From positions 29,870 to 93,869 of the forward strand of contig DASTOB010000061.1 in NCBI GenBank assembly GCA_035720425.1: DNA of 64,000 nt, written 5' to 3'. The first letter of the stretch is position 1. Each line of letters starts with the position of its first letter. This DNA is from Candidatus Limnocylindrales bacterium (GTDB lineage Bacteria > Chloroflexota > Limnocylindria > Limnocylindrales > CSP1-4). The translations under genes were made by a program, and so were the position numbers. The notes below the pieces were generated by a model that made no database searches, was not told where the DNA came from, and saw only the letters and a program-made list of their open reading frames with translations. This document shows positions 13,928 to 52,581 of this stretch, piece after piece.

Positions 13928-13940
13928 CGACGGTGACCCG

Positions 13941-15275: not shown

Positions 15276-15282
15276 CGACGCA

Positions 15283-23982: not shown

Positions 23983-24048
23983 GTCCCGGTAGCGCGTCCG
24001 CGCGGACCTCCCGGCGCACGAATCGCGCCACCCCCGTACGATTCGGGC

Positions 24049-29080: not shown

Positions 29081-30704
29081 CGACTCCGTCTCCGTGTGCC
29101 GCGCCCGCGGCGCGAGGGGATGATCCGGGCGCAGCATGCGCCGTTCGCTCGCCCATCGCGAGCGCCGCCGGCGCGGCGGCCGCCGTGAGGCCGGCGGCGA
29201 CGAGGAAGATCCCGACCATGATCCGGGCCGCCTCGCCGGCCGCCCAGTCCTCGAGCGCCTGGACCACGAGCCCGTCGCGGAGCGGACGGTCGCGCAGCTC
29301 GGCGGGAATGAACGCCGTGTATGCGTCCGGCGTGGCGTAGACCTCGTCGTACAGGCGATCGATCGTCGTGGACCCATACGCGGTGAGCACGGCGAGGCCG
29401 ACGGCCATCCCGACCATCCGGGCGACGGTCACGGTCGCCGAGGCGGCCCCGAAGGCGGCCCGGCCGACGGCTTCCACGGCCGCCGTCGAGCGCGGCGTGA
29501 CGGTCAGCCCGAAGCCGAATCCGAAGATCCCAAGGCCGATCGCGACCTGGTCGAGCGGGGTCGACGGCGTCCAGCCGGCCATGGCGGCGAGCGCCGCTGT
29601 ACTCGCACCGAGGCCGGCGATCGTGATGAGCCGAAGTGAGACGACCCGGAGGGCGAAGCCGGACACGAGCGCGCCGAGCGCCGTCGCGCCGGCGAGCGCG
29701 CCGAGGGCAACCTGCTGCTGGGCCGGCCCGCCGTACAGGACGCGGTCGACGAACACTGCGCCGCCGACGATCGCGGTAGCCAGCCCGTAGCCGGTCAGGA
29801 GGCTCACGATCGCGGCCGAGCTGAAGGCCCGGATCCGGAAGAGGCGCGGGTCGAGGAACGGGTCGCTCCGTCGCAGGCCGGCGGCGACCGCGACGAGCGT
29901 CGCTACCGCGGCGATCGCCGCGAGCCACGGGGTCACGGCCGCCGGGTCGACGTCCCCGGGGTCACCGCCGCCCTCGGCACCGATGAGCGTGAGTGCGATC
30001 AGCCCGGCTGCAAGCGCGATGCTGAAGACCACCGCGCCGAGCACGTCGACGCGGCCGTTGCGGCGCGGCGTGTCCCATCCGTGAGAGGCGGCCCAGGCGA
30101 TCGCGAGCGCGGCGATCCCGACGGGGACGTTGAGATAGAAGACCCAGCGCCAGGCAGGCGCAAGCGATTCGAGCAGGAGCGGGTCGTCGAGGCTCGCGCG
30201 GGCGAGGGCCCCTTCGACGTGGATCGCCGACAGGATCGCCGCGCCGAGGAACGGGCCGGCGGCCATGCCGAGGAACGTGAGGGCGCCGACGACGCCGAGG
30301 GCCCGTGGCCGGGCGTGACCGTCGAAGAGGTGGGACGCCGCCGCGGTGGCGACCGGCACGAGGGCCCCGCCGCCCGCGGCCTGGACGAGGCGCGCGGCGA
30401 TGAGCTCCTCGAGTGACTGGGCTCGTCCCGCGAGGGCGGACCCGACGGTGAACACCGCGAGCGCGGCGAGGAACAGGCGGCGGGAGCCCCAGACGTCCGT
30501 GAGCCGACCCGCGAGCGGCATCGCGACGACGTACACGAGCAGGTACCCGTTGACGATCCACGACGCGGTCCGGAGGTGGGTCCAGTCGGCGAGGTCCGTC
30601 ACGATCGACGGCAGGGCGACGGCCGTGATCATGAGCTCGAGCCCGGCGAGGAACACGCCGGCACCGAACACGCCGAGCAGCGCGATCGCGGTCAGGCGGC
30701 CCAT
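29043..30704 (-). CDS. MFS transporter, 14-TM drug:H+ antiporter (DHA2/EmrB-QacA-like)
   Basis: About 14 hydrophobic spans. The N-terminal part reads GLELMITAVALPSIVTDL...LAGRLTDVWGSRR (MFS motif A-like). The start is the ATG at 30704 (MGRLTAIALL). Confidence 0.85.
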   Translation of the reverse strand: MGRLTAIALLGVFGAGVFLAGLELMITAVALPSIVTDLADWTHLRTASWIVNGYLLVYVVAMPLAGRLTDVWGSRRLFLAALAVFTVGSALAGRAQSLEELIAARLVQAAGGGALVPVATAAASHLFDGHARPRALGVVGALTFLGMAAGPFLGAAILSAIHVEGALARASLDDPLLLESLAPAWRWVFYLNVPVGIAALAIAWAASHGWDTPRRNGRVDVLGAVVFSIALAAGLIALTLIGAEGGGDPGDVDPAAVTPWLAAIAAVATLVAVAAGLRRSDPFLDPRLFRIRAFSSAAIVSLLTGYGLATAIVGGAVFVDRVLYGGPAQQQVALGALAGATALGALVSGFALRVVSLRLITIAGLGASTAALAAMAGWTPSTPLDQVAIGLGIFGFGFGLTVTPRSTAAVEAVGRAAFGAASATVTVARMVGMAVGLAVLTAYGSTTIDRLYDEVYATPDAYTAFIPAELRDRPLRDGLVVQALEDWAAGEAARIMVGIFLVAAGLTAAAAPAALAMGERTAHAAPGSSPRAAGAAHGDGVDGRDDTEPSLAL

Positions 30705-30863
30705 CGGTCGATGGTACGCGCGAAGTCGGTGAGCCCACACGGGCGCGGCCGACGCACCACCGGCGCCGCCGGCGCACCATCGTGCTGTCGCCGTGGCATG
30801 CGGCCGCGCAGGCTTCGGCCGACCCGTCACCGTGAGACCCTGTCCGCGGTCGCATCGGCTCCA

Positions 30864-30882
30864 TTGATGCCGCACGCATCAA
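30864..30882. promoter_or_regulatory. Perfect 7-5-7 palindrome TTGATGC-N5-GCATCAA, a candidate operator
   Basis: The palindrome is visible directly in the 418-bp MFS/arsR divergent intergenic region. It shares the core CATCAA/TTGATG with the inverted repeat at the arsR promoter. Further half-sites occur at about 31020 (ATTGATGG) and about 31106 (ATTGATA). Confidence 0.45.
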
Positions 30883-31067
30883 CGGGCGCGTCACGGGGCC
30901 GGCTGGCCGCCCGGGGTCGCCGGCTTGTCGAGCGCCACGCAGCCGGTTATCGATGGACGCGGTGGGATCACGACAAGGCCGGCCGCGCGAGGGACAATCG
31001 CCTCGCCTTGCCCACACGGCATTGATGGAGGCGGTACGCGGGCGCGCAACGGGTGGCGACGGTCCCG

Positions 31068-31127
31068 TTGACAGGGGACGAGCAACCGGGCTAGCATCAA
31101 CGAAGATTGATATAAACGGTCGTTGAT
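31068..31127 (+). promoter_or_regulatory. Sigma70-type promoter plus overlapping inverted-repeat operator for the arsR-PI/PIM operon
   Basis: The promoter reads TTGACA (31068-31073), an 18-nt spacer, then TAGCAT (31092-31097). The inverted repeat ATCAACGA (31096-31103), N16, TCGTTGAT (31120-31127) overlaps the -10 element and the predicted transcription start. Confidence 0.5.
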
Positions 31128-31515
31128 CCGACCGCCACGCACCGGAGCCCCTCCCCTGAGCCCCTCGCCCGCCCGCATTCGCTCGACCCTCGCCACCGTG
31201 CTCGACCAGCCGGACGAGCTGCGCGCCCTCCGCCTCGTCCACAAGACGCTGGCCGACGTCAATCGGCTGCGGATCGTGCGCCGTCTCGCCGAGTCGGACG
31301 CGACGGTGACCGAGCTCATCGAGCATGTCGGCCTGTCGCAGCCGCTCGTGTCGTGGCACCTCGCGCGGCTCCGCGCCGCGGGCCTCGTCGAGACGCGCCG
31401 GAACGGTCGCGAGACGGTGTGCGCCCTTCGGGCGGAGGCGTGGGAAGCCTTCGTCGAGCGGGAGCGCATCGTGCTCGGGCTCGGCGGGGCGGCCGCGCGG
31501 CGGGCCGCCTCGTGA
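31123..31515 (+). CDS. ArsR/SmtB-family transcriptional regulator
   Basis: Winged-HTH region: LADVNRLRIVRRLAESDATVTELIEHVGLSQPLVSWHLARLRAAGLVETRRNGRETVCAL. The start could be the TTG at 31123 or the GTG at 31198. I saw no ELCVCDL-type metal site; the protein has a single Cys. Confidence 0.85.
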   Translation: MIRPPRTGAPPLSPSPARIRSTLATVLDQPDELRALRLVHKTLADVNRLRIVRRLAESDATVTELIEHVGLSQPLVSWHLARLRAAGLVETRRNGRETVCALRAEAWEAFVERERIVLGLGGAAARRAAS

Positions 31516-32195
31516 CCGGCTCGTTCGTCTCCCCAGAGACCCGGCAGCGGATCCGCGGCTGGGCCGTCCCCGTCGCCGTCGCGATGGGTCGCCTCGGCCT
31601 GACCCCGAACGCGCTGACCGTCATCGGCTTCGCCGGCACGACGGTCGCGGCGATCGCGGCGGCCACCCAGCAGTGGCTGCTGGCCGGGATCCTCGTCCTC
31701 GCCTTCGGGATCTTCGACCTGTTCGATGGTGCTCTCGCGCGGGCGACCGGGCGGGCGACGAAGTTCGGTGCGTTCCTCGACTCGACCCTCGACCGAACCG
31801 GCGAGAGCCTCGTCGTCGCCGGTGTGGCGGTCGGGTGTGCGGGCGCGGATTTCATCGCCGGCGTCGCGCTTGCCGGGATCGCTGCGACGTTTGCATCGGG
31901 CGTCACGTACACGAGAGCCAAGGCCGAGGCGCTCGGGCTCCATGGTGAAGTCGGGTTCGCCCCTCGACCCGAACGGCTGGCCATCCTCGCCGCCGGACTC
32001 GTCCTGGCCGACGTATTGGGTGGCGTCGGCCGCGGGGAACCCGCCTCCGAGCTCTTCATCCAGGTCGACCCGGTTTGGCTCACGGGCACGTATGCGCTGA
32101 TGGTGTCGCTCGGCCTCATCGCGATCCTGTCGGCCGTGACCGTCCTCCAGCGCATCGTCCACGTCAAACGACAACTCGAATCCACCGACCAGTAG
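31512..32195 (+). CDS. pgsA: CDP-alcohol phosphatidyltransferase, phosphatidylinositol-phosphate (PIP) synthase-like
   Basis: Motif FDLFDGALARATGRATKFGAFLDSTLDRTGE (D-G-x2-A-R...G-x3-D-x3-D) and six TM segments. The GTG start overlaps the arsR stop (GTGA). The adjacent ino1 and pimA genes support the PIP-synthase assignment. Confidence 0.85.
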   Translation: MTGSFVSPETRQRIRGWAVPVAVAMGRLGLTPNALTVIGFAGTTVAAIAAATQQWLLAGILVLAFGIFDLFDGALARATGRATKFGAFLDSTLDRTGESLVVAGVAVGCAGADFIAGVALAGIAATFASGVTYTRAKAEALGLHGEVGFAPRPERLAILAAGLVLADVLGGVGRGEPASELFIQVDPVWLTGTYALMVSLGLIAILSAVTVLQRIVHVKRQLESTDQ

Positions 32196-32216
32196 TCGAA
32201 CAGCAGGGAGCAGCGA

Positions 32217-33482
32217 ATGGCCACCAACGGCAAGAACGGCAAGGGTGCGAAGAACGGCGCGACGCCGGACAACACGTGGGCGGGCGCCGCCCGCCGCAAG
32301 GACGGCAAGATCCGCGTCGCCATCGTCGGCGTCGGCAACTGCGCCAGCAGCCTCGTCCAGGGCCGCTACTACTACGAGGACGCCAGGGAAGGCGACTTCG
32401 TCCCGGGCCTCATGCACGTCAACCTCGGCGGTTACCACGTCCGCGACATCGAGTTCGTGGCCGCGTTCGACATCGACAAGAACAAGGTCGGCAAGGACCT
32501 CTCGGATGCCATCTACACGAAGCCGAACAACACGTACGTGTTCCAGCAGGTCCCGCACACCGGCGTGACGGTCGAGCGCGGGATGACCCACGACGGCCTC
32601 GGCAAGTACCTGAGCCAGGTCATCGAGAAGGCCCCCGGCGCGACGGCCGACATCGTCGGCATCCTCAAGGAGCGCGAGGTCGACGTCATGGTCAGCTACC
32701 TCCCGGTCGGGAGCGAGCAGGCCACGAAGTGGTACGTCGAGCAGGCCCTCCAGGCGGGCGTCGGGTTCATCAACGCGATCCCGGTGTTCATCGGCCGCGA
32801 GCCGTACTGGCAGCGCCGCTTCGCCGAGGCCGGCCTGCCGGTGATCGGCGACGACATCAAGAGCCAGGTCGGCGCGACGATCAGCCACCGCGTCCTGACC
32901 CGCCTGTTCATGGACCGCGGTGTGCGCCTCGATCGGACCTACCAGCTCAACTTCGGGGGCAACACGGACTTCCTCAACATGCTCGAGCGCGAGCGGCTCG
33001 AGTCGAAGAAGATCAGCAAGACCAACGCCGTCACGTCGATGCTCGACTACGAGCTCGACCCCGACGACGTCCACGTCGGCCCGAGCGACCATGTGCCGTG
33101 GCTGCAGGACCGCAAGTGGTGCTACATCCGGATGGAGGGCACGACCTACGGCGACGTCCCGCTCAACGCGGAGCTCAAGCTCGAGGTCTGGGACAGCCCG
33201 AACAGCGCCGGCGTCATCACCGACGCGATCCGCTGCCTCAAGCTGGGCCTCGACCGAGGTCTCGCGGGCACGCTCGTCGCCCCGTCGAGCTACTTCATGA
33301 AGAGCCCGCCGATCCAGATCCACGACGACATCGCGTTCAACCGCGTCGAGGCGTTCATCCGGGGCGAGGACACGGAAACGCTCGTCGGCACGGAGGCACC
33401 GCAGAAGCGGACCCTCCGCAAGCTGGCCGCGGCGCCGAAGCCGAAGACCGCCACCGCCGAGCGGGCACCCTCCACGCGGTGA
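32217..33482 (+). CDS. ino1: myo-inositol-1-phosphate synthase
   Basis: [17 protein letters not shown]...[15 protein letters not shown]...[17 protein letters not shown]...[13 protein letters not shown]...[12 protein letters not shown]. Confidence 0.92.
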
Positions 33483-34585
33483 AGCGACGCGCCCTCCGAG
33501 GTCCGAGGCCAGGCTCCGCGAGGCCAGGCTCCGCGAAGCCATCGGCCCGGGGACTCGAGGCGCCGCATCGGCCGCGCCGATCCGGGTCGCGGCTGGTCGA
33601 GCGCTCGGCCGTCGTCGCCTATCGGACCGCGGCCGCGGTCATCGGTCGGCTGCCCGCCGCCCCGGCCCGCTTCGTCATCGGCCTTGGCGCCCAGCTGTCG
33701 TACCTCGCGTGGCCTGCCAAGCGGCGGGGGTCGAACGCGAATTTCGGCCACGTTCTGGGTCTCCCCCCGGACCATCCCCGCGTTCGCCGCCTCGCGCTGG
33801 CGGCCTACCGGGAGTACGCGCGCTACCTCGTCGAGCTCATGCAGCTGCCCCGCCTTCCGGCGTCGGAGGCGGGTCGGCTCCTGCCGACCGTGGACGTCGA
33901 TGCCGTCGAGCCGATCTGGCGCGAGTCGCGCGGCGGGCTCATCTTCGCCGTCGGCCATGTCGGCAACAACGAGGCGGTCGCGGCCGGGATCGCGTCGCGC
34001 GGCTGGCCGATCAGCGTCGTCGCCGACGACACCGCCTTTCCGGAGCTGTACGAGGACTTCCGCCGGATGCGTGCGACGTGGGGAATCCGGCTCATCCCGT
34101 GGCGCAACCTGCGCGAGATCTACGGCGTGCTGCGGCGGCGCGAGATGCTCGGCCTGCTCGTCGACTGGGGCTTTCGCGACGACGGCGTCCCGGTCCGCCT
34201 GCTCGGCAGCTGGACGACGCTGCCGTCGGGACCGGCCACGCTCGCGGCGAAGACCGGGTCGCGCATCCTCCCGATCGTCATCCGCCGCACCGGCGAGTGG
34301 CGCTTCCACGCCGAGTACACCGGCGTCATCGAGGCGACTTCGACGTCGCCGGCGGAGATCCGGCGCGTGACCCAGGCGATCGCCGACTCGCTCGGCGCGG
34401 CGATCGCGGCCGCGCCGCACCAGTGGTACAGCTTCAAGTCGATCTGGCCGGCGACCGCAGAGGAACAGGCTGCGCTCGAGCGGAGGGCGGCCGAGATGGA
34501 CGGGGCGGCCGACGTGCCCGGGGCGGCCGATGCGAACGGGGCGGCCGACGTGCCCGACCCCGCCGCCGAGGCGCGCTCGCCGTGA
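33479..34585 (+). CDS. LpxL/HtrB-family lipid acyltransferase (PIM acyltransferase PatA-like), copy 1
   Basis: [16 protein letters not shown] (HX4D-like region)...[40 protein letters not shown]...PHQWYSF. The GTG start overlaps the ino1 stop (GTGA). The N-terminal 40 aa are basic and repeat-containing ([10 protein letters not shown]). Confidence 0.78.
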
Positions 34586-35610
34586 CCACGGCCGATCCTG
34601 CCGCGCCGGTGGCCGGCCGCGCGGCCGGCACGACTCGGCAGCGCGTTCGCGCGTCGGTCGTGGCCGCCGCGTCGTGGCTCGCCTGTCGACTGCCGGAGGG
34701 ACCGCTCATCCGCCTGGCCGAGGTCGCCGGCGAGCTCCGCTACCGCCTGTCGCCCGCGACCGCCGCGCAGGCGCGGCGCAACCTCGCGCGGGTGACCGCC
34801 TACCTCGACGCGACGGGCACCGGGTCCGATCGGGCCCGCGCCGCGGCGGCGGACCCGCGCGCCCTCGAGCGCCTCGTCCGGGCCGCCTTCCGCCACGCCG
34901 CGCGCTACTACCTCGAGGTCGCCCGCACGCCGGCGGTGACCGATCGGATGCTCCGCGAGCGGCTGCTCATCGAGAATCCCGAGGTCGTCGACGCGGCGTT
35001 CGACGGCGGGCGGGCGCCGATCTTCGTCGGGCTCCACTTCGGCGCGGTCGAGCTGCCGGCGCTCTACCTCGCCTCACGCTCCGGCCGGCCCGCCACCGCG
35101 CCGATGGAAACGATCGACGACCCGCCGCTCCAGGACTGGTTCGTGCGAACGCGCGGCAGCGTCGGGATCCGGATCGTCGGCCTGCGCGAGGCGCGCCGTG
35201 AGCTCCTCGCCGCCCTGCGTCGCGGCGAGCCGGTCGGGCTCGTCGGCGACCGGGACCTGACCGGTGGCGGCGTCGAGTTGCCATTCTTCGGTGCACGGGC
35301 GCCGCTCCCGGCCGGGCCGGCGCTCCTTGCCATCGAGGCGGATGCGCCGCTCTTCGTCGCGTCGGTCCGGCGGGCCGGGCCGGGGCGGTACCGCGGCCGA
35401 CTCCAGCACGTCGAGACCGGCGACGGCACGACCCGCCGCGAGCGGCTCACCTCGACGATGACCGGCCTCGCCCGGGCGTTCGAATCGGCCGTCGCCGATG
35501 CGCCGGAGCAGTGGTGGGCGGTCTTCTTCCCGATCTGGCCGGACCTCGAGGCGGTCGCCGCCGCTGCCGACACGAGCACCGAGCGACGCGGGACCGGGGG
35601 CGGCCGATGA
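34582..35610 (+). CDS. LpxL/HtrB-family lipid acyltransferase, copy 2 (paralogue of the previous gene)
   Basis: APIFVGLHFGAVELPA...LVGDRDLTGGGVELPFFGARAPLPAGPALLAIEADAPLFV...PEQWWAVFFPIW. The GTG start overlaps the upstream stop (GTGA). Confidence 0.78.
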   Translation: MTTADPAAPVAGRAAGTTRQRVRASVVAAASWLACRLPEGPLIRLAEVAGELRYRLSPATAAQARRNLARVTAYLDATGTGSDRARAAAADPRALERLVRAAFRHAARYYLEVARTPAVTDRMLRERLLIENPEVVDAAFDGGRAPIFVGLHFGAVELPALYLASRSGRPATAPMETIDDPPLQDWFVRTRGSVGIRIVGLREARRELLAALRRGEPVGLVGDRDLTGGGVELPFFGARAPLPAGPALLAIEADAPLFVASVRRAGPGRYRGRLQHVETGDGTTRRERLTSTMTGLARAFESAVADAPEQWWAVFFPIWPDLEAVAAAADTSTERRGTGGGR

Positions 35611-36380
35611 CGGATCGACTCGGTCGGGCGGACCTGCACATCCACACGCTCGCCTCGGACGGCACGGCCGGCATCGGCGAGATCCTCGACCACCTCGAGG
35701 CGCGCACGACGCTCGACGTCATCGCGATCACCGATCACGAGCGGATCGATGCCGCCGTCGCCGCGCGGTCGATCGCCCGGGATCGCGGCCTGCGCGCGGA
35801 GGTCGTCGTCGGTGAGGAGGTGACGACGCGCGGCGGCCACCTGCTCGCGCTGTTCATCGAGGAGCGCGTTCGGCCCCTTCGCTCGCTCCGCTCGACGATC
35901 GCCGCGATCCACGACCAGGGCGGGATCGCCATCCCCGCCCATCCGCTCGTGCCGTACCCGCTGTGCGCCCAGGGGTTCGTCCTGCGCGGCCTCCTCGACG
36001 ACCCGGACGAGCGCGTCCATCCCGACGCGATCGAGACGTTCAACCCGACGACGCTCGGGCGGCCGTGGCACGGCCGAGTGGTCCGCTTCGCGGAGGAATA
36101 CGGGCTGGCCAAGGTCGGCAACAGCGACGCCCACGCGGTCGAGGCGATCGGGACCGGCTGGACAACGTTCCCCGGGCGGAGCGCGGACGACCTGCGTCGC
36201 GCGATCGCGGAGCGGCGCACCCACCACCATGGTGCGTTCCACGGAACCGGGTCGCAGATCACGACGTTCGGGCGGCAGCTCCGCAAGTACGGCCGCGACG
36301 CCCGCGACACCGTTCGCGGGCGTCTCCTGCGCGACGGTTCCGGCCGGGACCTGGGCTACCCGGAGGCGGGCGGGCGATGA
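35607..36380 (+). CDS. PHP-domain metal-dependent phosphoesterase
   Basis: ADLHIHTLASDGT...VIAITDHERID...GGIAIPAHP...ETFNP...GNSDAHAVEAIG (PHP His/Asp motifs). The ATG start overlaps the upstream stop (ATGA). Confidence 0.85.
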   Translation: MTDRLGRADLHIHTLASDGTAGIGEILDHLEARTTLDVIAITDHERIDAAVAARSIARDRGLRAEVVVGEEVTTRGGHLLALFIEERVRPLRSLRSTIAAIHDQGGIAIPAHPLVPYPLCAQGFVLRGLLDDPDERVHPDAIETFNPTTLGRPWHGRVVRFAEEYGLAKVGNSDAHAVEAIGTGWTTFPGRSADDLRRAIAERRTHHHGAFHGTGSQITTFGRQLRKYGRDARDTVRGRLLRDGSGRDLGYPEAGGR

Positions 36381-36393
36381 AGAGCGGCGGCCG

Positions 36394-37581
36394 ATGAAGA
36401 TCGGGCTCGTCTCGCCGTACGTGTATCCGCTGCCCGGCGGCGTCACCCAACACGTCCGCTACCTCTACGAGAACCTGCGCCTGCGCGGTCACGACGTCCG
36501 GATCATCACCAGCTCGCACGGCCTGCAGCGCGCATCGGACGGCGACATCATCCGAATCGGCAAGGGGTTCTCGATGCCGGCCAACGGGTCGGTCGGCACG
36601 ATCACGCTGTCGCCGCGCTTCGTGTCGCAGGTTCAGGACGTGCTCGATCGCGAGCAGTTCGACCTGCTCCACTTCCACGAGCCGTTCGTGCCGTTCCTGT
36701 CGCTCATCGTGCTGCGCCAGTCACGGAGCGTGAACGTCGCGACGTTCCACGCCTATGGTGGCTTTTCCACTGCCTACGAGTTCGGCAGCCGGGTGCTCGG
36801 CGGGTATGCGGCGCGGCTCCACGGGCGGATCGCGGTGAGCGCCGCGGCGCGCCACTTCATCGACCGGTTCTTTCCGGGTGACTACAAGGTGATCCCGAAC
36901 GGGGTTGACGTCGAGCGGTTCGCCCGCGCGGTGCCCGTTGCGCGCTGGCAGGATGGCACGCGGAACCTCCTGTTCGTCGGCCGGCACGAACCGCGCAAGG
37001 GCCTCATCGAGCTGCTCAAGGCGTTCCGCATCCTGCGCAAGACCGGCTGCCAGTGCCGCCTCCTCGTGGTCGGCAGCGGGCCGCAGGAGCGGGAGGCGCG
37101 CCGCTACGTGCTGACGCGGCGGCTGGGCAACGTCGAGTTCCTGGGCCGCGTCACCGACGACGAGAAGGCGCAGCTGTTCCGGACGGCCGACGTGTACGTT
37201 TCGCCGGCGACCGGGGCGGAGTCGTTCGGGATCGTGCTCCTCGAGGCGATGGCGGCGGGCACGCCCATCGTGTGCAGCGACATCCACGGCTACAAGGGCG
37301 TCGTCCGACGCGGCCGCGAGGGGCTGCTCGTTCCGCCGCGCAAGCCGAAGGCCATCGCGGCCGCGATCGGCGAGCTGCTGGCCGATAACGAGCGACGCGC
37401 GGCGATGGGCGCCGCCGGGCAGCTCCGCGCCGAGGAGTTCAGCTGGCAGCGGGTCACGGCAAAGGTCGACGACTACTACGGCTTCGTCATCCGCCGCCTC
37501 GCCGCCCAGAACGCCTTGCCGCCGGGATTCCGGGCGGAGGTGCCGCCGGCGACGCGCGTCGCGGGGAGCGAGACCGCGTAG
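36394..37581 (+). CDS. pimA: GT4 glycosyltransferase, phosphatidylinositol alpha-mannosyltransferase PimA-like
   Basis: MKIGLVSPYVYPLPGGVTQHVRYLYENLRLRGHDVRIIT...FVGRHEPRKG...ESFGIVLLEAMAAGTPIV (the EX7E region). It is the last gene of the pgsA-ino1-acyltransferase operon. Confidence 0.8.
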   Translation: MKIGLVSPYVYPLPGGVTQHVRYLYENLRLRGHDVRIITSSHGLQRASDGDIIRIGKGFSMPANGSVGTITLSPRFVSQVQDVLDREQFDLLHFHEPFVPFLSLIVLRQSRSVNVATFHAYGGFSTAYEFGSRVLGGYAARLHGRIAVSAAARHFIDRFFPGDYKVIPNGVDVERFARAVPVARWQDGTRNLLFVGRHEPRKGLIELLKAFRILRKTGCQCRLLVVGSGPQEREARRYVLTRRLGNVEFLGRVTDDEKAQLFRTADVYVSPATGAESFGIVLLEAMAAGTPIVCSDIHGYKGVVRRGREGLLVPPRKPKAIAAAIGELLADNERRAAMGAAGQLRAEEFSWQRVTAKVDDYYGFVIRRLAAQNALPPGFRAEVPPATRVAGSETA

Positions 37582-37639
37582 GTCCGTGGCCGGACGACTC
37601 GAGGCCGGGGCCGCCCGCGGCTCGGGCCGGCGCTCGTGG

Positions 37640-37710
37640 GAGGCTGATCTTCGGGGCTGATCTCCGGGTCCCTCGTCGGGGCCCTCGTCGGGGCTGATCT
37701 CCGGGGCCTC
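37640..37710. repeat. Short interleaved direct repeats (GCTGATCT x3, CCCTCGTCGGGG x2)
   Basis: I read these directly from the sequence in the convergent pimA / giant-GT intergenic region. Confidence 0.6.
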
Positions 37711-37723
37711 TCGCGGGCCGTTC

Positions 37724-38043
37724 GCTCGTGGGACGAGCAGCCGGGACATGGTGGGGCCCGCGCAGGTCTCGTTCGCTCGTGGGACGAGCAACGGCGACCG
37801 ATTTGGGCGCCAGGGTGCACCGGCTGCTCGTGGGGCGAGCAACGCCGACGTGGTGGGGCTCTTCCGCGTCGCGTTCGCTCGTGGGACGAGCGGCGGCGAC
37901 CGATCGAGGCGCCAGGGTGCACCGGCTGCTCGTGGGGCGAGCAACGCCGACCTGGTGGGGCTCTTCCGCGTCGCGTTCGCTCGTGGGACGAGCGGCGGCG
38001 ACCGAGCTGAGCACCACAGGTACCGGCTGCCCGTGGGACGAGC
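37724..38043. repeat. Array of 7 GC-rich hairpin cores (GCTCGTGGGRCGAGC) phased every 51 bp, organised as a 102-bp tandem repeat of two alternating 51-bp sub-units
   Basis: The cores start at 37724, 37775, 37826, 37877, 37928, 37979 and 38029 (the last is degenerate). The 102-bp units starting at 37771, 37873 and 37975 are near-identical. Each core is a 5-6 bp stem with a 5-nt loop. Confidence 0.85.
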
Positions 38044-38056
38044 AGCCCTGCGACCC

Positions 38057-41000
38057 TCAGCCGGGCTGAGCGACTGCCCCGCTTCCGTCGTCGCTCGCCT
38101 CGCGTTCGGCCAGCGCGATTCGCCAGACCCAGGCGCTGTACGCGACGACCGCACAGGCAACGGTGAGCGCCGCCAGCAGGATCGCCGGACCCGGGGCGAT
38201 GAGCGACGGCCCGGCCACGTTGCGATCGACCGTGCTGACCGGGAACTGGAACGGGTACACGTAGGTCGGCAGGATTCCCTGGTACATGTTCACGATCGGA
38301 GCCGGGAGCGGCAGGGCGGCGATGTTCGGATAGAAGAACACGGCCGTGCCGACGATCGCGAGCAACGCACCGCCGACGAACCGCCGCGCATCGCGGGCGG
38401 TTGCCACGAAGCCCGCGATGAGGACGAGCGGCAGGGCGACGAGCAACGCGACCGGCTCGACGGCGACATTGCTGAGTGCGAGGAGCGTGACTTCCCCGGC
38501 CGTCGCGGTCACGACCGCGAGCGCGATCGCCGCCACGAGGGCAACCACGAGCGCGGGGCCGAACACCCCGACGACGCCCGCCGACCTGGCGAGCCCCGCG
38601 AGCCCCCCGAGCGCCCCGACCCCGACGCGCCCCTCGACGCTCCGGACTCCCCCGACTCCCTCGCCTCCCCCGACTCCCTCGCCTCCCGCGAACCGACCCG
38701 ATCGGATCGAATCCCCCGCCGAGCCGCTCCCGCTCGGTCCCCGGTGGTCCTCCGGCTCGCCCCCGTCCGTCGGCCGCTGCAGGCGAAGCAGCTGGCGCAC
38801 GAGGATGAGCACCGCGAGCGTGACGACGATCGCGAGGGCAGCCGACCGATAGGTGAGCACGAACTCCGGGATGAGCGTGGGGCACGCTCGTGAGCCCGGA
38901 AGCACCTGCTCGACCCCGACGAACCCGCACAGCGGGCGGTGGAACAGCCACATCGCGGCCGGCGCGACGACCGCGGCGGCGGCCGCGAGTCGCGCGAACA
39001 GCCACGTCCGCCGCGACGCCCCGTGCCACAGCTCGGCGAGGAAGTAGGCCAGGGCAAGGAGCACGAACGGCAGGCTCGTGTAGTAGTGGTACTGGAACGC
39101 CGCCCGATCGATCCGCGCCCACGGGATCCACTGGCAGGCAAACCCGATCGCGATGAGTGCGAGGGCCAGACTGCGCCGGCGGTACGCCTGCCACGCGGCG
39201 AAGGCCATCGCCGGCACGCCGAGCCACCAGATGACGAGGTTGCCCGCGTCGTAGATCGACGCCGCGGTCCCGCCGGCGAACGACTCCTGGTAGAACCAGA
39301 CCGGCTTGAGGTCGAACGGCCAGGCCCACCACGGCGACGAGGCAGCGTGCGCGGACGACAGCGTGTTGTGATAGCGGTACATGTCGCCGGTCAGGGTGAG
39401 CAGCGTCTGCCCGGTATGTCCGGCCGGCCAGCCGTCGACGATCCGATGGTTCTCGACCCACGCCCACGGCACGTACGAGGCGACATAGACGGCGACCGGG
39501 ATCGCGATCAGGCAGGCCAGCATCCACGCGACCGGGAGGCCGAGGGCCCAGCCCGGCCGGAGCCACCCGGCTGCCGGTGGATCCGCCGGCGCGAGCAGCG
39601 CCGCCGGATCGTCCGGCCCCGGCGGCGGTGCGAGGGGGCCGAACCCCCACCGCCCGGCCAGCCAGAAGGCGCCCGCGACGGCGATCGACCCGAGGGCGAG
39701 GGCGAACGAGGCCTCGAGCGGCGTGACGCTCACGCTGCCGAGCGCGATTGGCGCGTCGAGCACGCCGGCGGCGAGCGCGGCAAGGGCGATCAGCCCACCG
39801 GCCGCGGCCGGCGCCCCGATCGCGAAGCGGAGCTCGTCGTCCGACCAGGCGATCGGCCGGAGCACGGTCACCACGACCGCGACGAGGGTCAGGGCGATCA
39901 TGATGAGCGGGAAGAGGAGGTTGCCGCCGGTCTGTCCCTCCGGGACGCTGATCGCGAGATAGCCGAGCACGGTCGTCACGACGATCATCCCGGCCACGAG
40001 CACGAGCCGGCCCAGCGCGCTCCGGGCCAGGATGAGGATGCCGAGCGCGCCGATGGCGTAGGCCGCCACCCACTTCGAGGCGAGCGCCAACCCGAGCAGG
40101 AGGCCGATCGCCGGCATGACGACCCAGAACGCGCCGCGCCACCGCCACGCACCGGTCCACAACCCCGCGAACAGCGCGTACGCGGCAACGATGAACAACC
40201 CGACGTACGCGTCGTTCATCCCGATCCGCGCCTGGACGAAGAGCATCCCGTCGGCGACGAGCAGGATGGCGAGGAAGACCGCGACCGCGCGACGCTGGAA
40301 GAACAGGCGCGCGAGCAGGAACAGCAGCACCGCCATGATCGTCCCGGCGATCACGCCGGGCAGGCGCCATGCGAAGGCGTGGCTGCCGACACCGATCGAC
40401 GCGGTCGTCCCGTCGGGCTCGAACACGAGCAGCTCCTGGCGGTCGTCCGCCGGGTACAGCCCGTTGGAGTCCATCACCCACGCCGCCGGCTCGGCCGGCA
40501 AGCGCGCATCCGCGTAGACCGCGTTGGCGTGTGGCTCGATGACGTAGACCGTCCAGCCGGCCGGGTCGTCCGGCGCGGCGCCGAGGATGTGGACCTGCTG
40601 ACTCGCCTCGTCGTGGGCCACCCACCCGCCTCGGGCCGGAAGCGGTGCCGACCGATCGAGGGTCGGCGTGTCGTCTGCCTTGTCGCCCCCGATCGTGACG
40701 ATCCCGTAGCGCGGCCCGTCCGCGCCGTTCATCGTGAAGTACAGCTTCGGATCGTCGACGCCCGTGACGAGAGCGACTCCGCCGGCGCCGCCATCCGCGG
40801 GGAGCGTGGACGACACCGCCCCAGCGGCGGGCACGACGAACGTCAGGCCACTCGCCGCCGCGACCGCGACGCGCGGCAGCTCGACCACCTCGACGCCCGC
40901 GAGCCGGCCGCTCGTGATCGCCCCGTCGACGCGTTCGCGCCGATCGACCGGCACGGGGGCCAGGATGACGCGCTCCGCGTCGGATGCGAGGAGCTCGCGA

Positions 41001-43537
41001 TAGTGCTCCCGGTCGCCGCCCACGAGCCCGGCCAGGGCGGCCGCGACGGCCACGGGGTCGGCGACGTCGGCCGGGTTGGCGACGGCGGCCGGCGCGCGTC
41101 CCGCCTCGGCCAGCTGGGCGATCCCATCGAGGACGAGCGTGCCGGTCACCGTACCGCTCGCCGCGTCGACCATCGCAGCCCGCCCGTCGGCAAGGACGGC
41201 TACCAGCGCGGAGCCGTCGTCGGTCACGTGGATGCGCTCGATCGCGCCGTCGAGCCGCGTCAGCTCCGGCGCCGCGAGGCTGAAGCCGTCGGTCCCGATC
41301 GCGCGCGCCTCGTCGAGCGACGTGAGCTCGATCGTCGCGAGGACGCCATCGGCCGTCCCCACGATGAGCCGGTGGCCCACCCGGTCGACCGCGACGGCCG
41401 ACGCGCCGACCACCGGCGTCGCGGCCACGAGCGCGCGGGTGGCGAGGTCGTACGAGCGCACCTCGGTGCCGGTCGCGACATGCAGCCGGTCGCCGAGCCG
41501 ACCGGACCGACGGGCCGGATCCTCGTAGCGGGGCTCGATCACGGCGTCGGCCACCGGCACGCCGAGCTCGCTCGTTGCCCGCACCCGGTCGTCGCCCCAG
41601 GCGACGATCCCGCCGGCCATCGCGTACTTGGCGAGGTGCGGGTGCGTCCACTCGTAGATGTCGTGCGAGATCCCGTAGCGCCAGTGCTGGAGGAATTCGG
41701 TCGCCGTCCGCGCGTGATACACCTCGTCGAAGTGCATCTGGTACGGCTCCGCGAGCCGCCACAGCCGCGTGCCGAACACGGCGGCGATGAGCACGACGAC
41801 GATCCACAGGTCGAGCCGGTCGAGGCGCCCGCCACGCTCGCGGGCGAGGAGGGCGGTGCGATCCGGCCGGATGGGCCGCTCGACGAGGCGAGTCCGGAAC
41901 CACTCCCAGGCGCCGACCTCGGCGACCGGCGGGCGCTCGCGCCAGGTCGGTGGCCGCGGCGGTTCGGCCGGCTCGGCGATCGGTGATCCGGGCGACGATG
42001 GCGGAGGGATGACCGACGCCGCCGAGCGCGGCGCCGGAGCGAGGTGGAGCGGGCGGGCGGACCCCTCCGGGACGTCCTCCGGCGATTCGACCGGCGTTCC
42101 CGCAGCGGCTTCGGCCGACGCGCCGATCTCGCCACGCACCCCTGCGATCGCCCCGCGACGGAGCTGACCGGCGACCCATCCGAACGCCGCGGCGTGGACG
42201 AGCGCAACGACGGCGACCCCGGCGGCGGACCGGATGAGCGGCCCGATCCCGAGCCAGTCGTCGATCTGCGGGTTGTCCGGATAGAGCGTGGTGAGGACGA
42301 CGTACATGTTCGCGAACGTCGCGACCGAGACGATGACGTACGCGATACGCCAGCGCAGCGACCCGCCGGCCAGGATCGCGGCGAGGGCGAAGAACGGGAA
42401 CAGGTACCGCTCATGGACCCGGGTCGGCACGATGAAGAAGACGAAGGCGAGGACGATGAGCCCGACAAGCATGGTGATCCGATCCGGCCGCCGCGCAACG
42501 ACGAGCGTGACCGCGCCGATCGCGGCGAGGAGGAGCGCCGTGCCGACCAGCAGCGCGGGGACGGGCCCGAACATGAACGCGACGCCCTCGCCCGGACCGC
42601 TGCCGGCCACGTCGCGGACCCATTGGCCGCTCGCCGCCAGCCCCACGCCGTCGAGCGACAGGAGCGCCCACGGGTTGTACGCGTTGACGGTCAGGTATGG
42701 ATAACCGGCGGCGGCCGTGCCGACCTGCTCGAGGAGGCCGACGATCGATAGGCCGTACGGGGCCGACAGGGCGACAGCGGTGAGCAGGCCGACGAGCCCG
42801 GTCGTCACGACGCGCAGCGGGCCCCGGGTCCGCCACTCCCAGTCCGTCGTCGTTCGCCGTCGCTCCGGGGCATCGTCGCCGCCGAACCCGCCCTCCGGCC
42901 AGAATGCCCGCCGAATCGTTACCGCGGCGACGAGCGGAACGAGGATGCCGAGCTGCGGCTTGATGATCGCGGCGACGACGGTCAGGAACGCGGACCGCTC
43001 CGGCCGGTCGCGCCACAGTTCGCGGAGCGCGAGGAGCAGGAAGACGACGCCGACGGCATCGACCTGGCCCCACACGACGCTGTCGAACCAGGTGATCGGG
43101 TTGACGATGACGATGACGGCCGACACGAGGGCGGCCCGCCGGCCGATCCCGAGCTCGAGGGCCATCGACCGGACGAGCCAGGCGAGGGCCAGATCGGCGA
43201 GGATGGGCGGGACCTTGATGAGGTCGCCGATCCCACCGAACGCGGAGCCGACGAGGCCGACCACCCAGAGCACGTACAGGTAGCCGGGCGTGTAGTCGTG
43301 GAAGAACGGGCGCTCGTAGAACCCGAACGGGCCCTCCGCGGCGAGGTTCGCCGCCCAGAAGCGGAAGGCGTTGAGGTCCGCCTCGAAGCCGGATCCCGGG
43401 AGCAGGTATGCAAGAATGAGCCGGAAGGCGAGCCCGAGCGCGAGCACGATGAGGATCGCGCTGGCCGCTTCTCCCGTCCTGGTCCGCGTCGGCGCTTCCA
43501 CGCCCCGATCGGGCTCACCCGTAGCGGGGCGACTCAC
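38057..43537 (-). CDS. Giant (1826 aa) polytopic membrane protein: an N-terminal GT-C-fold glycosyltransferase fused to a PMT/GT39-type protein O-mannosyltransferase-like domain that carries a roughly 400-aa soluble insertion
   Basis: - N-terminal domain: FEADLNAFRFWA...DYTPGYLYVLW...HERYLFPF, with many TM segments.
- A Pro-rich linker follows.
- PMT-like part: MHFDEVYHARTATEF...WTHPHLAKY, then the insertion, then HAFAWRLPGVIAGTIMAVLLFLLARL and more than 10 further TM segments.
- I chose the GTG at 43537, which is preceded by AGGAGG. Confidence 0.8.
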   Translation of the reverse strand: MSRPATGEPDRGVEAPTRTRTGEAASAILIVLALGLAFRLILAYLLPGSGFEADLNAFRFWAANLAAEGPFGFYERPFFHDYTPGYLYVLWVVGLVGSAFGGIGDLIKVPPILADLALAWLVRSMALELGIGRRAALVSAVIVIVNPITWFDSVVWGQVDAVGVVFLLLALRELWRDRPERSAFLTVVAAIIKPQLGILVPLVAAVTIRRAFWPEGGFGGDDAPERRRTTTDWEWRTRGPLRVVTTGLVGLLTAVALSAPYGLSIVGLLEQVGTAAAGYPYLTVNAYNPWALLSLDGVGLAASGQWVRDVAGSGPGEGVAFMFGPVPALLVGTALLLAAIGAVTLVVARRPDRITMLVGLIVLAFVFFIVPTRVHERYLFPFFALAAILAGGSLRWRIAYVIVSVATFANMYVVLTTLYPDNPQIDDWLGIGPLIRSAAGVAVVALVHAAAFGWVAGQLRRGAIAGVRGEIGASAEAAAGTPVESPEDVPEGSARPLHLAPAPRSAASVIPPPSSPGSPIAEPAEPPRPPTWRERPPVAEVGAWEWFRTRLVERPIRPDRTALLARERGGRLDRLDLWIVVVLIAAVFGTRLWRLAEPYQMHFDEVYHARTATEFLQHWRYGISHDIYEWTHPHLAKYAMAGGIVAWGDDRVRATSELGVPVADAVIEPRYEDPARRSGRLGDRLHVATGTEVRSYDLATRALVAATPVVGASAVAVDRVGHRLIVGTADGVLATIELTSLDEARAIGTDGFSLAAPELTRLDGAIERIHVTDDGSALVAVLADGRAAMVDAASGTVTGTLVLDGIAQLAEAGRAPAAVANPADVADPVAVAAALAGLVGGDREHYRELLASDAERVILAPVPVDRRERVDGAITSGRLAGVEVVELPRVAVAAASGLTFVVPAAGAVSSTLPADGGAGGVALVTGVDDPKLYFTMNGADGPRYGIVTIGGDKADDTPTLDRSAPLPARGGWVAHDEASQQVHILGAAPDDPAGWTVYVIEPHANAVYADARLPAEPAAWVMDSNGLYPADDRQELLVFEPDGTTASIGVGSHAFAWRLPGVIAGTIMAVLLFLLARLFFQRRAVAVFLAILLVADGMLFVQARIGMNDAYVGLFIVAAYALFAGLWTGAWRWRGAFWVVMPAIGLLLGLALASKWVAAYAIGALGILILARSALGRLVLVAGMIVVTTVLGYLAISVPEGQTGGNLLFPLIMIALTLVAVVVTVLRPIAWSDDELRFAIGAPAAAGGLIALAALAAGVLDAPIALGSVSVTPLEASFALALGSIAVAGAFWLAGRWGFGPLAPPPGPDDPAALLAPADPPAAGWLRPGWALGLPVAWMLACLIAIPVAVYVASYVPWAWVENHRIVDGWPAGHTGQTLLTLTGDMYRYHNTLSSAHAASSPWWAWPFDLKPVWFYQESFAGGTAASIYDAGNLVIWWLGVPAMAFAAWQAYRRRSLALALIAIGFACQWIPWARIDRAAFQYHYYTSLPFVLLALAYFLAELWHGASRRTWLFARLAAAAAVVAPAAMWLFHRPLCGFVGVEQVLPGSRACPTLIPEFVLTYRSAALAIVVTLAVLILVRQLLRLQRPTDGGEPEDHRGPSGSGSAGDSIRSGRFAGGEGVGGGEGVGGVRSVEGRVGVGALGGLAGLARSAGVVGVFGPALVVALVAAIALAVVTATAGEVTLLALSNVAVEPVALLVALPLVLIAGFVATARDARRFVGGALLAIVGTAVFFYPNIAALPLPAPIVNMYQGILPTYVYPFQFPVSTVDRNVAGPSLIAPGPAILLAALTVACAVVAYSAWVWRIALAEREASDDGSGAVAQPG

Positions 43538-43569
43538 GAGGGAAATCGGCCTCCTGCACGAGCGTTGAG

Positions 43570-45045
43570 GTGGAGCGCAGCGTAGCACAGGGTCGCGCGC
43601 CGGAGGCCCGGCCCGATCGACCGACGCCCCGGCCGGCCCGTTCCTGGCGTGCGCTGCGGATCGCGCTCGCTCTGATGGCCGTGGCCGCCATCGCCTACAC
43701 GGCCTGGAACCCGCTTCGCTTCTACAACCACTTCGTGTGGCAGGCGGAGGCCTTCCTCGACGGACGCGCCGAGATCGCGTACCCGGTCGCCGCATCGGAC
43801 GATTCCCCGGGCAACTGGTTCTTCCAGGACGTGCTCCCGGTCGAGCGGCCGCGCGGCGGCGAGCCCGGCACCGGTCTTATCCCGTTCCCGCCGCTGCCGG
43901 CGATCCTGCTCGTGCCGTTCGTCGCCGTGTTCGGTCTCGCGACCGACCAGCAACTCATCGCGTCGGTCCTCGGCGCGATCGACGTGGGCCTCGTCTGGTG
44001 GCTCCTGGGGCGGCTCCGGGTGTCCGAGTCGATCCGGCTGGCGACGACGATCTTCTTCGGCTTCGGGACGGTTTTCTGGTACACGGCGCAGCTCGGCACG
44101 ACGTGGTGGTTCGCGCACGTCGTGGCGCTCGCCCCGCTGCTGCTCGCCGTGGGGCTGGCGATCGACGGCGACCGCGACAGCGCACGGAGCGAGGACGACC
44201 TGCGAGATCCGGAGGGCACGGATGCGGCCGGCCGCTCGATCCGCGCGCTCGCTCGACGGCCATGGCGCCTCCTCGACGCACGCCAGGTCGTCGTCGGCTT
44301 CCTGTTCGGCCTGGCGGCCACGGCGCGCCTGACCGTGCTCTTCGGCGCCCCGTTCTTCGTCCTCGTCGGCAGCGGCGGCAGCTGGCCGCGGCGGGCCGTG
44401 TCGGCCGGTCTCGGCGCAGCCATCCCGGTCGGCGCCCTGCTCGTCTACAACTACGTGTCGACCGGCCACCTGTTCCACCCCGCCTACGAGTTCCTCTACC
44501 GAGCGGAGGCGTTCGGCTACCCCACCCTCGGCTACCACCTCGACTGGGCGATCGAGGACCCGCGCTACATCCCGCAGAATCTCGCGATCATGCTGTTCAG
44601 CCTGCCGGTGCTCTTCCCCGACCAGGTCCCCTCGGCGCTCGGGGACTACGGCGCGCTGTGCGTCGATCCCGGCGCCGTGCGCGGGATCTTCGACGAGGCC
44701 TGCCCGATCGCGCTGCCGCGCGACGTCGGGATGAGCCTGCTCCTGACCAGCCCGGCCTATCTCCTCGCCCTGCCGGCCCTCCGCCTCCACGGCCGGTCGC
44801 GCCTGGTGACCGGGGCGGTGATCGCCGTCCTGCTCATCGCCGTCGTGAATCTCATGCACTTCAGCCAGGGCTGGGTCCAGTTCGGCTACCGCTTCAGCAA
44901 CGACTTCGTCGTCTTCGCGCTGCCACTCGTCGCGCTCGGCCTGGCGCTGCGCGGTGGGGTCGGACGGCTGGGCTGGGCCCTCGTCGCGGTGTCGGTCGCG
45001 GTCAACCTGTGGGGCGTCGCGTGGGGGAATCTGCTCGGATGGTGA
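43570..45045 (+). CDS. Polytopic membrane glycosyltransferase, GT-C-like (ArnT/PMT_2-like)
   Basis: 491 aa with at least 10 TM segments and an early periplasmic-loop acidic motif region (FQDVLPVE...PFPPLPAILLVP). It is divergent from the giant GT gene and is the first gene of a three-gene operon. The family call is by eye. Confidence 0.6.
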   Translation: MERSVAQGRAPEARPDRPTPRPARSWRALRIALALMAVAAIAYTAWNPLRFYNHFVWQAEAFLDGRAEIAYPVAASDDSPGNWFFQDVLPVERPRGGEPGTGLIPFPPLPAILLVPFVAVFGLATDQQLIASVLGAIDVGLVWWLLGRLRVSESIRLATTIFFGFGTVFWYTAQLGTTWWFAHVVALAPLLLAVGLAIDGDRDSARSEDDLRDPEGTDAAGRSIRALARRPWRLLDARQVVVGFLFGLAATARLTVLFGAPFFVLVGSGGSWPRRAVSAGLGAAIPVGALLVYNYVSTGHLFHPAYEFLYRAEAFGYPTLGYHLDWAIEDPRYIPQNLAIMLFSLPVLFPDQVPSALGDYGALCVDPGAVRGIFDEACPIALPRDVGMSLLLTSPAYLLALPALRLHGRSRLVTGAVIAVLLIAVVNLMHFSQGWVQFGYRFSNDFVVFALPLVALGLALRGGVGRLGWALVAVSVAVNLWGVAWGNLLGW

Positions 45046-50960: not shown

Positions 50961-51078
50961 GCGGGCCTCGTGCGAACGGGCGGGCTCCCGGATGCCGGGG
51001 CGGTGCGAAACGGCGGGCGGGACGATCCCGGGTACGATCGTCGACGCTCGCCCCGTACTGTCTGGCAGGTGGCCCGGA

Positions 51079-52565: not shown

Positions 52566-52581
52566 ACCGGCCCGAGGCGTG

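Follow-up and report, generated by a model that had tools for sequence, protein, structure and literature searches.

A PHP-family phosphoesterase as a candidate phosphatidylinositol phosphate phosphatase in an inositol-lipid operon of Chloroflexota

Introduction

The phosphorylated intermediate of phosphatidylinositol (PI) synthesis, phosphatidylinositol phosphate (PIP), has a known phosphatase only in Bacteroides, and the corresponding mycobacterial enzyme, part of a pathway that is essential and a drug target, continues to be sought. Knockout of BT_1525 in B. thetaiotaomicron, a gene of the PgpA family located in an inositol-lipid cluster, leads to the accumulation of PIP-diacylglycerol (PIP-DAG), and its product was named PIP phosphatase (PMC9246714). 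For mycobacteria, a July 2026 preprint calls the enzyme "long-sought" and proposes EphE without enzymology (bioRxiv 10.64898/2026.07.15.738315). Here we describe a gene for a metal-dependent phosphoesterase of the PHP family (positions 35607-36380, plus strand) in a 64,000-nucleotide stretch from a Candidatus Limnocylindrales bacterium of the Chloroflexota (contig DASTOB010000061.1, positions 29,870 to 93,869), which we call the window and to which all positions refer. On sequence evidence we consider it probable, at roughly 60%, that the gene encodes a cytoplasmic, peripheral-membrane, trinuclear-metal phosphomonoesterase that acts as a PIP 3-phosphatase and represents a new enzyme family. 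Such an assignment would place a known activity in a new, non-homologous family; we found no relevant literature linking PHP proteins to PIP, PIP synthase, PimA or Chloroflexi.

The gene belongs to a run of seven consecutive plus-strand genes at 31.1-37.6 kb: arsR, PIP synthase, ino1, two acyltransferases (AT1 and AT2), PHP and pimA. This unit shares its core—PIP synthase, a PatA-type acyltransferase and PimA—with the mycobacterial operon pgsA1 (Rv2612c)-patA (Rv2611c)-pimA (Rv2610c)-Rv2609c, but it has arsR, ino1, a second acyltransferase and PHP in addition, is without the Nudix gene and follows another order. The seven genes are predicted to code for every step from glucose-6-phosphate to an acylated phosphatidylinositol mannoside (PIM), PIM1, save the PIP phosphatase, and the unit contains exactly one unassigned hydrolase, the PHP gene. 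An earlier note on this DNA had remarked on the PHP gene within a tightly coupled PIP-synthase/ino1/PimA unit and had called it a logical candidate for the dephosphorylation of PIP. The observation is confirmed, and the proposal gains support from a conserved linkage with PIP synthase and from an intact active site.

Conservation of the linkage with PIP synthase

The lineage is Candidatus Limnocylindria (Chloroflexota), so that the actinobacterial framing of the earlier note does not stand; the homologues that share 71-96% identity with the PHP protein are from metagenome-assembled genomes of Candidatus Limnocylindria and Limnocylindrales. Across 80 species-level Limnocylindria genome loci the PHP gene is preceded by AT2 and followed by pimA without exception, and 55 of the loci extend to the PIP synthase gene. 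The order arsR-PIPS-ino1-AT-AT-PHP-pimA (PIPS, PIP synthase; AT, acyltransferase) is found on every contig long enough; one locus (L029) is without ino1. Identity across these loci is higher for the PHP protein (71-80%) than for PIP synthase (41-74%) or the acyltransferases (47-71%).

The association reaches further than the class. At E<1e-10, 1626 clusters were returned from 1.84 billion representative proteins, with member names that include Limnocylindrus, Dehalococcoidales/Dehalococcoidia, Ktedonobacterales, Roseiflexaceae, Chloroflexi/Chloroflexota and Dormibacteraeota; the labels Patescibacteria and Deltaproteobacteria occur on a few odd bins, and no Actinobacteria were seen among the names of the cluster members. 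We inspected the gene contexts of distant homologues at 38-50% identity. Five of them, P0375, P0349, P0353, P0158 (a cluster named Dormibacteraeota) and P0412 (Ktedonobacterales), lie in the order ino1-AT-AT-PHP-GT4-PIPS (GT4, glycosyltransferase family 4), with the PIP synthase gene shifted from the front of the unit to its back. A sixth, P0202, lies in ino1-AT-PHP-GT4-PIPS with a single acyltransferase. The linkage in these six loci spans other Chloroflexota classes and Dormibacteraeota, with Dehalococcoidales (Dehalococcoidia) and Ktedonobacterales among the lineages named.

A metagenome scan was run with a 10-sequence alignment (A3), a 48-sequence alignment (A1) being too diverse. It provided a sample of 80 loci with 37-62% identity to a Roseiflexaceae member, which were classified by tblastn with five cluster protein sets. 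PIP synthase adjoins the PHP gene in 46 of them. When only the 23 loci with at least 3 kb upstream and at least 3.5 kb downstream are counted, 18 are linked to PIP synthase, three carry only a GT4 other than PimA, and two carry nothing of the cluster. The PIP synthase-linked loci range from 29 to 68% GC and from 37 to 49% identity to the window PHP protein. Their gene orders vary: a 29% GC contig (L157) reads PIPS-ino1-AT-pimA-AT-PHP, and four loci (L120, L122, L123 and L139) read arsR-AT-AT-PHP-pimA-x-PIPS without ino1. The association of PHP with PIP synthase thus persists through at least five gene orders. PHP also adjoins a GT4 gene directly in every full cluster, with a 4-base overlap between the PHP stop and the GT4 start in L082 and L084, and arsR at the head of the cluster is kept in most related loci. 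The earlier note had made its proposal depend on synteny with PI genes, and this synteny is conserved in 80 of 80 Limnocylindria loci, in the six distant homologue loci and in 46 of 80 metagenome loci.

Eleven Ktedonobacteria-like metagenome loci (51% GC) carry the unit in a reduced form, arsR-PHP-(0 or 1 gene)-PIPS, and pimA, the acyltransferases and ino1 are absent from these eleven. Histidine kinases and an NYN-domain gene flank them. The same PIPS-NYN junction closes L092, the full Ktedonobacterales cluster, and the reduced form looks like an L092-type site minus the PIM-specific genes. All 17 residues that are invariant in the PHP family alignment are intact in the two reduced loci checked for them (L143 and L151). 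Since the shrunken clusters keep PHP together with PIP synthase, and not with PimA or the acyltransferases, the PHP gene follows PIP synthase. Judged from gene content, this retention is what a PIP phosphatase predicts, and it argues against a role specific to PimA or to the acyltransferases. Cultured Ktedonobacteria contain PI as a major polar lipid (PMC12453558), and a dephosphorylated end product is therefore made in that class.

The PHP protein

The open reading frame (ORF) for this 257-aa protein runs from an ATG at 35607 to a TGA at 36378-36380, a call backed by the third-position GC frame plot, and homologues share the protein start MT-RLGRADLHIHT. The PHP motifs that had been read from the sequence earlier are present as H11-I-H13-T..S17-D18-G19, D43-H44-E45, A111-H112-P113 and S173-D174-A175-H176, and they fall on invariant columns of an alignment of 45 sequences (40-96% identity). 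Seventeen residues are invariant in this alignment: D9, H11, H13, D18, D43, H44, E71, H78, H112, D140, E143, N146, S173, D174, H176, T186 and F188. Among them is the complete set of PHP metal ligands (H11, H13, D18, D43-H44, E71, H78, H112 and D174-x-H176), which is also kept in the distant cluster variants.

The protein matches PF13263 (PHP_C) at 55.7 bits, above the cut-off of 21.3, and PF02811 (PHP) at 20.6 bits, below the cut-off of 26.4; many of its homologues carry PF02811 matches. Its AF2 model (pLDDT 91.7) has the distorted (beta/alpha)7 barrel of the PHP superfamily, and the top 40 Foldseek matches in the PDB are all PHP-domain proteins with probability 1.0. The nearest are the uncharacterised BVU_3505 (3e38) and TM0559 (2anu), at E about 1e-12 and TM 0.62-0.74, followed later by RNase AM (7ug9, 9etk), PsfC, BAD_1165, Cv1693 (2yb1) and PHP domains of DNA polymerase III.

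The protein does not qualify for the characterised families with which it was compared. Membership in RNase AM/TrpH (YciV) is contradicted by a score of 44 bits against a cut-off of 375 (NF047791), with only residues 8-75 aligned, and membership in the 3',5'-nucleoside bisphosphate phosphatases of the Cv1693 type by 36.7 bits against 400 (NF041577), with only the N-terminal 66 residues aligned. The model for PHP-type histidinol-phosphate phosphatase scores 18 bits against a cut-off of 117 (NF004981), and the corresponding structure, 2yxo, is a distant fold match (TM 0.40). The CehA/McbA metallohydrolase model comes closest, with 69.1 bits over residues 7-181 just under the cut-off of 80 (NF038032); it is a broad domain model without functional meaning for this protein. 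There is no match to CpsB-type models in the Pfam and NCBIfam searches, and with PHP_C and PHP as its only Pfam matches the protein is not a member of the PgpA family.

The PHP protein has no signal peptide and so shares its side of the membrane with the synthase and PimA. Its C-terminal helix (residues 214-241) is long and strongly amphipathic, with a net charge of +3 to +5 and a hydrophobic moment that only 0.55% of shuffled sequences reach. The predicted helix fits an interfacial enzyme; it is no proof of one.

Operon structure and neighbouring genes

Genes were called from third-position GC in the window, which has about 72% GC. The unit is headed by an ArsR-family HTH regulator at 31123..31515 (Pfam HTH_5, 55 bits), followed by the CDP-alcohol phosphatidyltransferase that we read as PIP synthase at 31512..32195 (PF01066), the myo-inositol-3-phosphate synthase gene ino1 at 32217..33482 (PF01658, 122 bits; TIGR03450, 538 bits) and two PatA-like lipid acyltransferases. 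AT1 lies at 33479..34585 (PF03279, 104 bits; NF005919, 139 bits) and AT2 at 34582..35610 (PF03279, 110 bits; NF005919, 141 bits); NF005919, the model for the PIM acyltransferase PatA, is the top NCBIfam model for both. The PHP gene (35607..36380) comes next, and a gene for a PimA-type GDP-mannose:PI alpha-1,2-mannosyltransferase of family GT4 ends the unit at 36394..37581. All seven are on the plus strand.

The GTGA overlaps reported earlier for arsR/PIP synthase (31512), ino1/AT1 (33479) and AT1/AT2 (34582) are present, as is the ATGA overlap at 35607-35610, where the PHP start codon covers the AT2 stop. The PHP gene does lie between the acyltransferases and pimA as had been claimed, with no direct overlap between PHP and pimA. 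A six-codon mini-ORF (MKSGGR) at 36377-36397 links the PHP stop to the pimA start with an ATGA at each end, and the junction GGCGGCCGATGA recurs at the AT2/PHP and mini-ORF/pimA boundaries. The PHP-pimA spacing differs among related loci, so the mini-ORF may be a product of chance.

A promoter scan of positions 30700-38200 found one sigma-70-like site against 0.1 expected from shuffled sequences. It is a consensus match only (TTGACA-18-TAGCAT, 31068..31097, plus strand) and lies just upstream of arsR; the scan found no such site inside the seven-gene unit. A single promoter under an ArsR-type regulator appears to serve all seven genes, whose translation appears to be coupled by the overlapping stop and start codons.

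The top NCBIfam models of the PIP synthase are those for AIP and PIP synthase (131.7 bits, below the equivalog cut-offs of 170-180), and its best PDB match is PgsA1 of M. tuberculosis (6h53, 79 bits). The D-D-D-D signature is intact (D68, D71, D89 and D93). Residues proposed to hold inositol phosphate in M. tuberculosis PgsA1 have been named (PMC6506517); in the inositol-phosphate pocket of the window protein R94, Y133, R152 and R155 are kept, with the substitutions K135>R and R137>K. Since the basic PgsA1-type pocket is kept, a phosphorylated product is expected. The GT4 protein matches M. smegmatis PimA (4n9w, 2gej) over its full length (residues 1-363, 217 bits, E 4e-63), with PimB' as the next best match at 76 bits.

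Several further features lie close to pimA. Convergent with it on the minus strand is a 1912-aa ORF (38057-43795) with a C-terminal PMT/PMT_4TMC domain (GT-C, polyprenol-phosphate-mannose type) preceded by about 1100 unassigned residues; a 727-aa PMT gene takes the same position in the Limnocylindria locus L089. The product may extend the mannolipid or may mannosylate proteins. A 102-bp tandem repeat (37724-38044, 3.2 copies, 86% matches) lies in the gap from the pimA stop to the end of this ORF, with shorter repeats of 12-13 bp at 37642-37707.

The remaining window is ordinary near-origin chromosome, with recF-dnaN-dnaA, yidC, a nuo cluster, purH and glpX. The genes recF, dnaN and dnaA (minus strand) and yidC (plus strand) at 51405-57760 place the origin region at about 55.8-56.5 kb, some 18 kb from the inositol-lipid operon. 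Within the run of nuo genes, a 991-aa ORF (14962-17937, plus strand) joins 2Fe-2S, GltD-like Fer4_20 plus pyridine-nucleotide-disulphide oxidoreductase, and 4Fe-4S dicluster domains. Such a composite is unusual among the subunits of complex I clusters, and the stop-to-stop frame of the ORF overlaps a NuoF-like gene (13899-15275). A GT20 gene of the trehalose-6-phosphate-synthase type (23983-25683, plus strand) lies directly 3' of the nuo genes. Three large ORFs with high third-position GC have no Pfam match: 5716-7440 (574 aa), 43525-45045 (506 aa) and 48690-51404 (904 aa).

Discussion

The linkage with PIP synthase, the reduced clusters and the intact metal site suggest the following pathway. 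Ino1 would make inositol-3-phosphate, which the PIP synthase of the operon would join to CDP-diacylglycerol to give PIP. The PHP enzyme, perhaps held at the membrane by its basic amphipathic C-terminal helix, would cleave the 3-phosphate from the inositol of PIP at the membrane surface and so leave PI. PimA would then mannosylate PI, and the two PatA-like acyltransferases would acylate its product. In such a scheme the PHP enzyme would be co-translated with the makers of its substrate and the users of its product. We infer PIP as the substrate, a step before PimA and membrane association through the helix, and we know of no validated PIP phosphatase in this lineage. For Chloroflexota and Dormibacterota, the genomic comparisons amount to a well-supported and testable functional prediction.

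Several considerations weigh on the other side. The case is one of guilt by association, built from genomic context and an intact active site. The closest PHP enzymes of known function have nucleotides or RNA (RNase AM, pAp phosphatase) or histidinol phosphate as their substrates, not lipids, and the sole validated bacterial PIP phosphatase belongs to another family, PgpA (PMC9246714). A housekeeping phosphatidylglycerol phosphate (PGP) phosphatase elsewhere in the genome, beyond the 64 kb inspected, could carry out the step. The action of PHP before PimA is an order that we infer, and the C-terminal helix may just pack on the barrel. Furthermore, PHP homologues at 37-42% identity are found without PI genes: one adjoins only a non-PimA GT4 (P0208), one follows a LytR_cpsA_psr gene (P0193), and one adjoins a phosphate porin, a Pst transporter and a PhoBR-like cluster (P0430). 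Among the distant homologues inspected above, P0230 has unrelated neighbours. Seven Roseiflexaceae-like loci (L097, L098, L103, L104, L105, L149 and L091) hold a PHP paralogue and a GT4 gene as a two-gene module among otherwise unrelated neighbours; these GT4 proteins score highest with the model for GlcNAc-phosphatidylglycerol synthase (GpgS), reaching 162-194 bits where the cut-off is 480. A PHP-GT2 fusion (P0234) also sits outside PI clusters. In a neighbour-joining tree of 103 homologues, which is star-like, PI-linked and unlinked members are interspersed. Because the tree does not separate the linked members, the orthology of all of them is unproven and the specificity is not family-wide.

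Some of these paralogues are of interest in their own right. The PHP paralogue of L094 (8001-8714, labelled Deltaproteobacteria) lies between a PhoBR-like pair and a phosphate porin with two Pst-type ABC transporters, a context that suggests a phosphate-scavenging phosphoesterase inside the same PHP_C family. L104 holds two PHP-GT4 pairs in opposite orientation. The 571-aa ORF of P0234 (L096, 4558-6273) has complete PHP/PHP_C and GT2 domains, adjoins a DedA/VTT gene as well as a divergent GT4 gene, and may be a genuine phosphatase-glycosyltransferase fusion. Three PHP-GT4 fusions (P0125, P0169 and P0383) were considered as Rosetta-stone evidence and left unused; in L089, the sole fusion locus inspected, the GT4 is split in two in a long-read assembly, so that the fusion is probably a frameshift artefact. 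Dehalococcoidia-type loci carry a second, different PHP-like gene of about 225 aa, histidinol-phosphatase-like and divergently transcribed, upstream of the ino1 cluster (minus strand; L081 3159-3827, L082 3591-4268, L083 1-672 and L084 4067-4744). The window holds no homologue of this second gene, and no paralogue of the PHP gene itself.

Glycosyltransferases are known to work in pairs with phosphatases, as trehalose-6-phosphate synthase does with its phosphatase and MshA with MshA2. By analogy, PimA might mannosylate PIP first, perhaps with acylation next, and PHP might then strip the inositol 3-phosphate from mannosyl-PIP. The immediate neighbourhood of PHP and GT4 in every full cluster, their 4-base overlap in L082 and L084 and the pairing of PHP paralogues with other GT4 or GT2 genes would all suit such an order. 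We nevertheless judge it improbable, since eleven loci hold PHP and PIP synthase without PimA, mycobacterial PimA is described as using PI, and Ktedonobacteria have PI itself as a major end product (PMC12453558).

PHP could also be a broad phospholipid head-group phosphatase, the general PGP and PIP phosphatase of the lineage. PIP and PGP phosphatase activities are evolutionarily close, the Bacteroides PIP phosphatase being of the PgpA family (PMC9246714). The window contains no other lipid phosphatase, with no PgpA, PAP2 or HAD phosphatase among its genes, and the GT4 proteins beside PHP paralogues have GpgS as their top model (PMC12713373), which lends weak support. These matches, however, are far under the cut-off of their model, the gene sits in an inositol-lipid operon and not beside a PGP synthase, and the window covers 64 kb of a genome in which PgpA, PgpB or PgpC homologues may lie elsewhere. 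This broader specificity, too, seems to us unlikely.

The best characterised relatives—RNase AM (7ug9, 9etk), Cv1693 (2yb1) and BAD_1165—raise the question of whether the protein is instead a nucleotide or RNA enzyme, such as a pAp/nucleoside bisphosphate phosphatase, an RNase AM-like exonuclease or a nucleoside diphosphate hydrolase, placed in the operon by co-regulation or chance. The mycobacterial pgsA1-patA-pimA operon offers something of a parallel, as it ends with a Nudix hydrolase directed at nucleotide sugars. Chance cannot explain a linkage with PIP synthase that holds through at least five gene orders and from 29 to 72% GC, and the scores for RNase RNM (44 bits) and bisphosphate phosphatase (37 bits) stand against cut-offs of 375 and 400 and involve the N-terminal 70 residues only. 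We regard a nucleotide or RNA role as very unlikely.

Hydrolysis of inositol-3-phosphate to free inositol, to feed an inositol-using PI synthase or the making of other inositol products, has in its favour that PHP shares an operon with ino1 in most loci. An inositol monophosphatase would, however, destroy the substrate of the synthase, which keeps the phosphate pocket of a PIP synthase and best matches PIP/AIP synthase models; the reduced clusters, moreover, hold PHP and the synthase without ino1, and we give this explanation hardly any credence. Least credible of all is a regulatory role in which the protein, like the PHP-fold tyrosine phosphatases CpsB/YwqE, would dephosphorylate proteins and thereby control glycolipid synthesis. 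CpsB has the PHP fold and is encoded in glycan operons beside an LCP protein, and the paralogue P0193 follows a LytR_cpsA_psr gene, but none of the PI-type clusters inspected has a BY-kinase or other kinase partner and the protein matches no CpsB-type model.

A wider reading may be ventured, although we hold it only tentatively and think it more doubtful than the assignment of PHP as a PIP 3-phosphatase: the PHP_C-type PHP proteins of Chloroflexota and Dormibacterota would form an unrecognised family of phospholipid head-group phosphatases, made up of PIP 3-phosphatases and, among the paralogues, perhaps PGP phosphatases, that partner head-group glycosyltransferases, among them PimA and GpgS-like GT4 enzymes. 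Under this reading the seven-gene unit may be a self-contained pathway to acylated PIM outside Actinobacteria. The tandem pair of PatA-like acyltransferases is kept across Chloroflexota classes and Dormibacteraeota (L081, L082, L084, L086, L092 and most loci), only the P0202 lineage having a single one. To our knowledge, acylation of the inositol 3-OH of Ac2PIM has not been assigned to an enzyme in mycobacteria. The 3-OH is the hydroxyl freed by removal of the 3-phosphate from PIP, which makes the second acyltransferase paralogue a candidate for its acylation; under the same reading this enzyme may act on the group that the phosphatase exposes.

A PIP 3-phosphatase of the PHP family would be a third, unrelated solution to PIP dephosphorylation, and PIP would be the first lipid substrate for the PHP fold. 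It would complete the pathway in Limnocylindria, Dehalococcoidia, Ktedonobacteria and Dormibacterota, which are abundant in soil and freshwater microbiota, and would imply PIM-type glycolipid machinery in these lineages. Coupled assays of PIP synthase would also gain a small soluble enzyme. The mycobacterial question is not solved by PHP, because no actinobacterial member was seen.

Comparison with known systems

The closest solved folds, TM0559 (2anu) and BVU_3505 (3e38), are of the same PHP plus PHP_C type. They share only about 20% identity with the window protein, have no long basic C-terminal helix and are uncharacterised in function, so no function can be transferred from them. RNase AM/TrpH (7ug9, 9etk), the 3',5'-bisphosphate nucleotidase Cv1693 (2yb1) and the PHP histidinol-phosphate phosphatase (2yxo) have the same barrel and the same trinuclear metal ligands, and demonstrate that the PHP fold hydrolyses both phosphomonoesters and phosphodiesters. 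They differ in acting on soluble nucleotides, RNA or an amino alcohol, and have no link to a lipid operon.

EphE (the ML2297/Rv homologue) is a candidate for the same step as the window PHP, proposed through its association with PimA and a PIM defect, with no direct enzymology. It is an actinobacterial alpha/beta-hydrolase, epoxide-hydrolase-like and with a His-Asp dyad, and is encoded outside the pgsA1 operon. BT_1525 (PIPPh) carries out the conversion of PIP to PI that we propose for the window PHP. Both genes lie in inositol-lipid clusters, BT_1525 adjoining MIP synthase and PIP synthase, and BT_1525 was itself assigned partly from gene context (PMC9246714). The two differ in family, PgpA as against the PHP fold, in phylum and in the kind of evidence: BT_1525 is known from a knockout and lipidomics, and the window PHP from sequence and genomic context.

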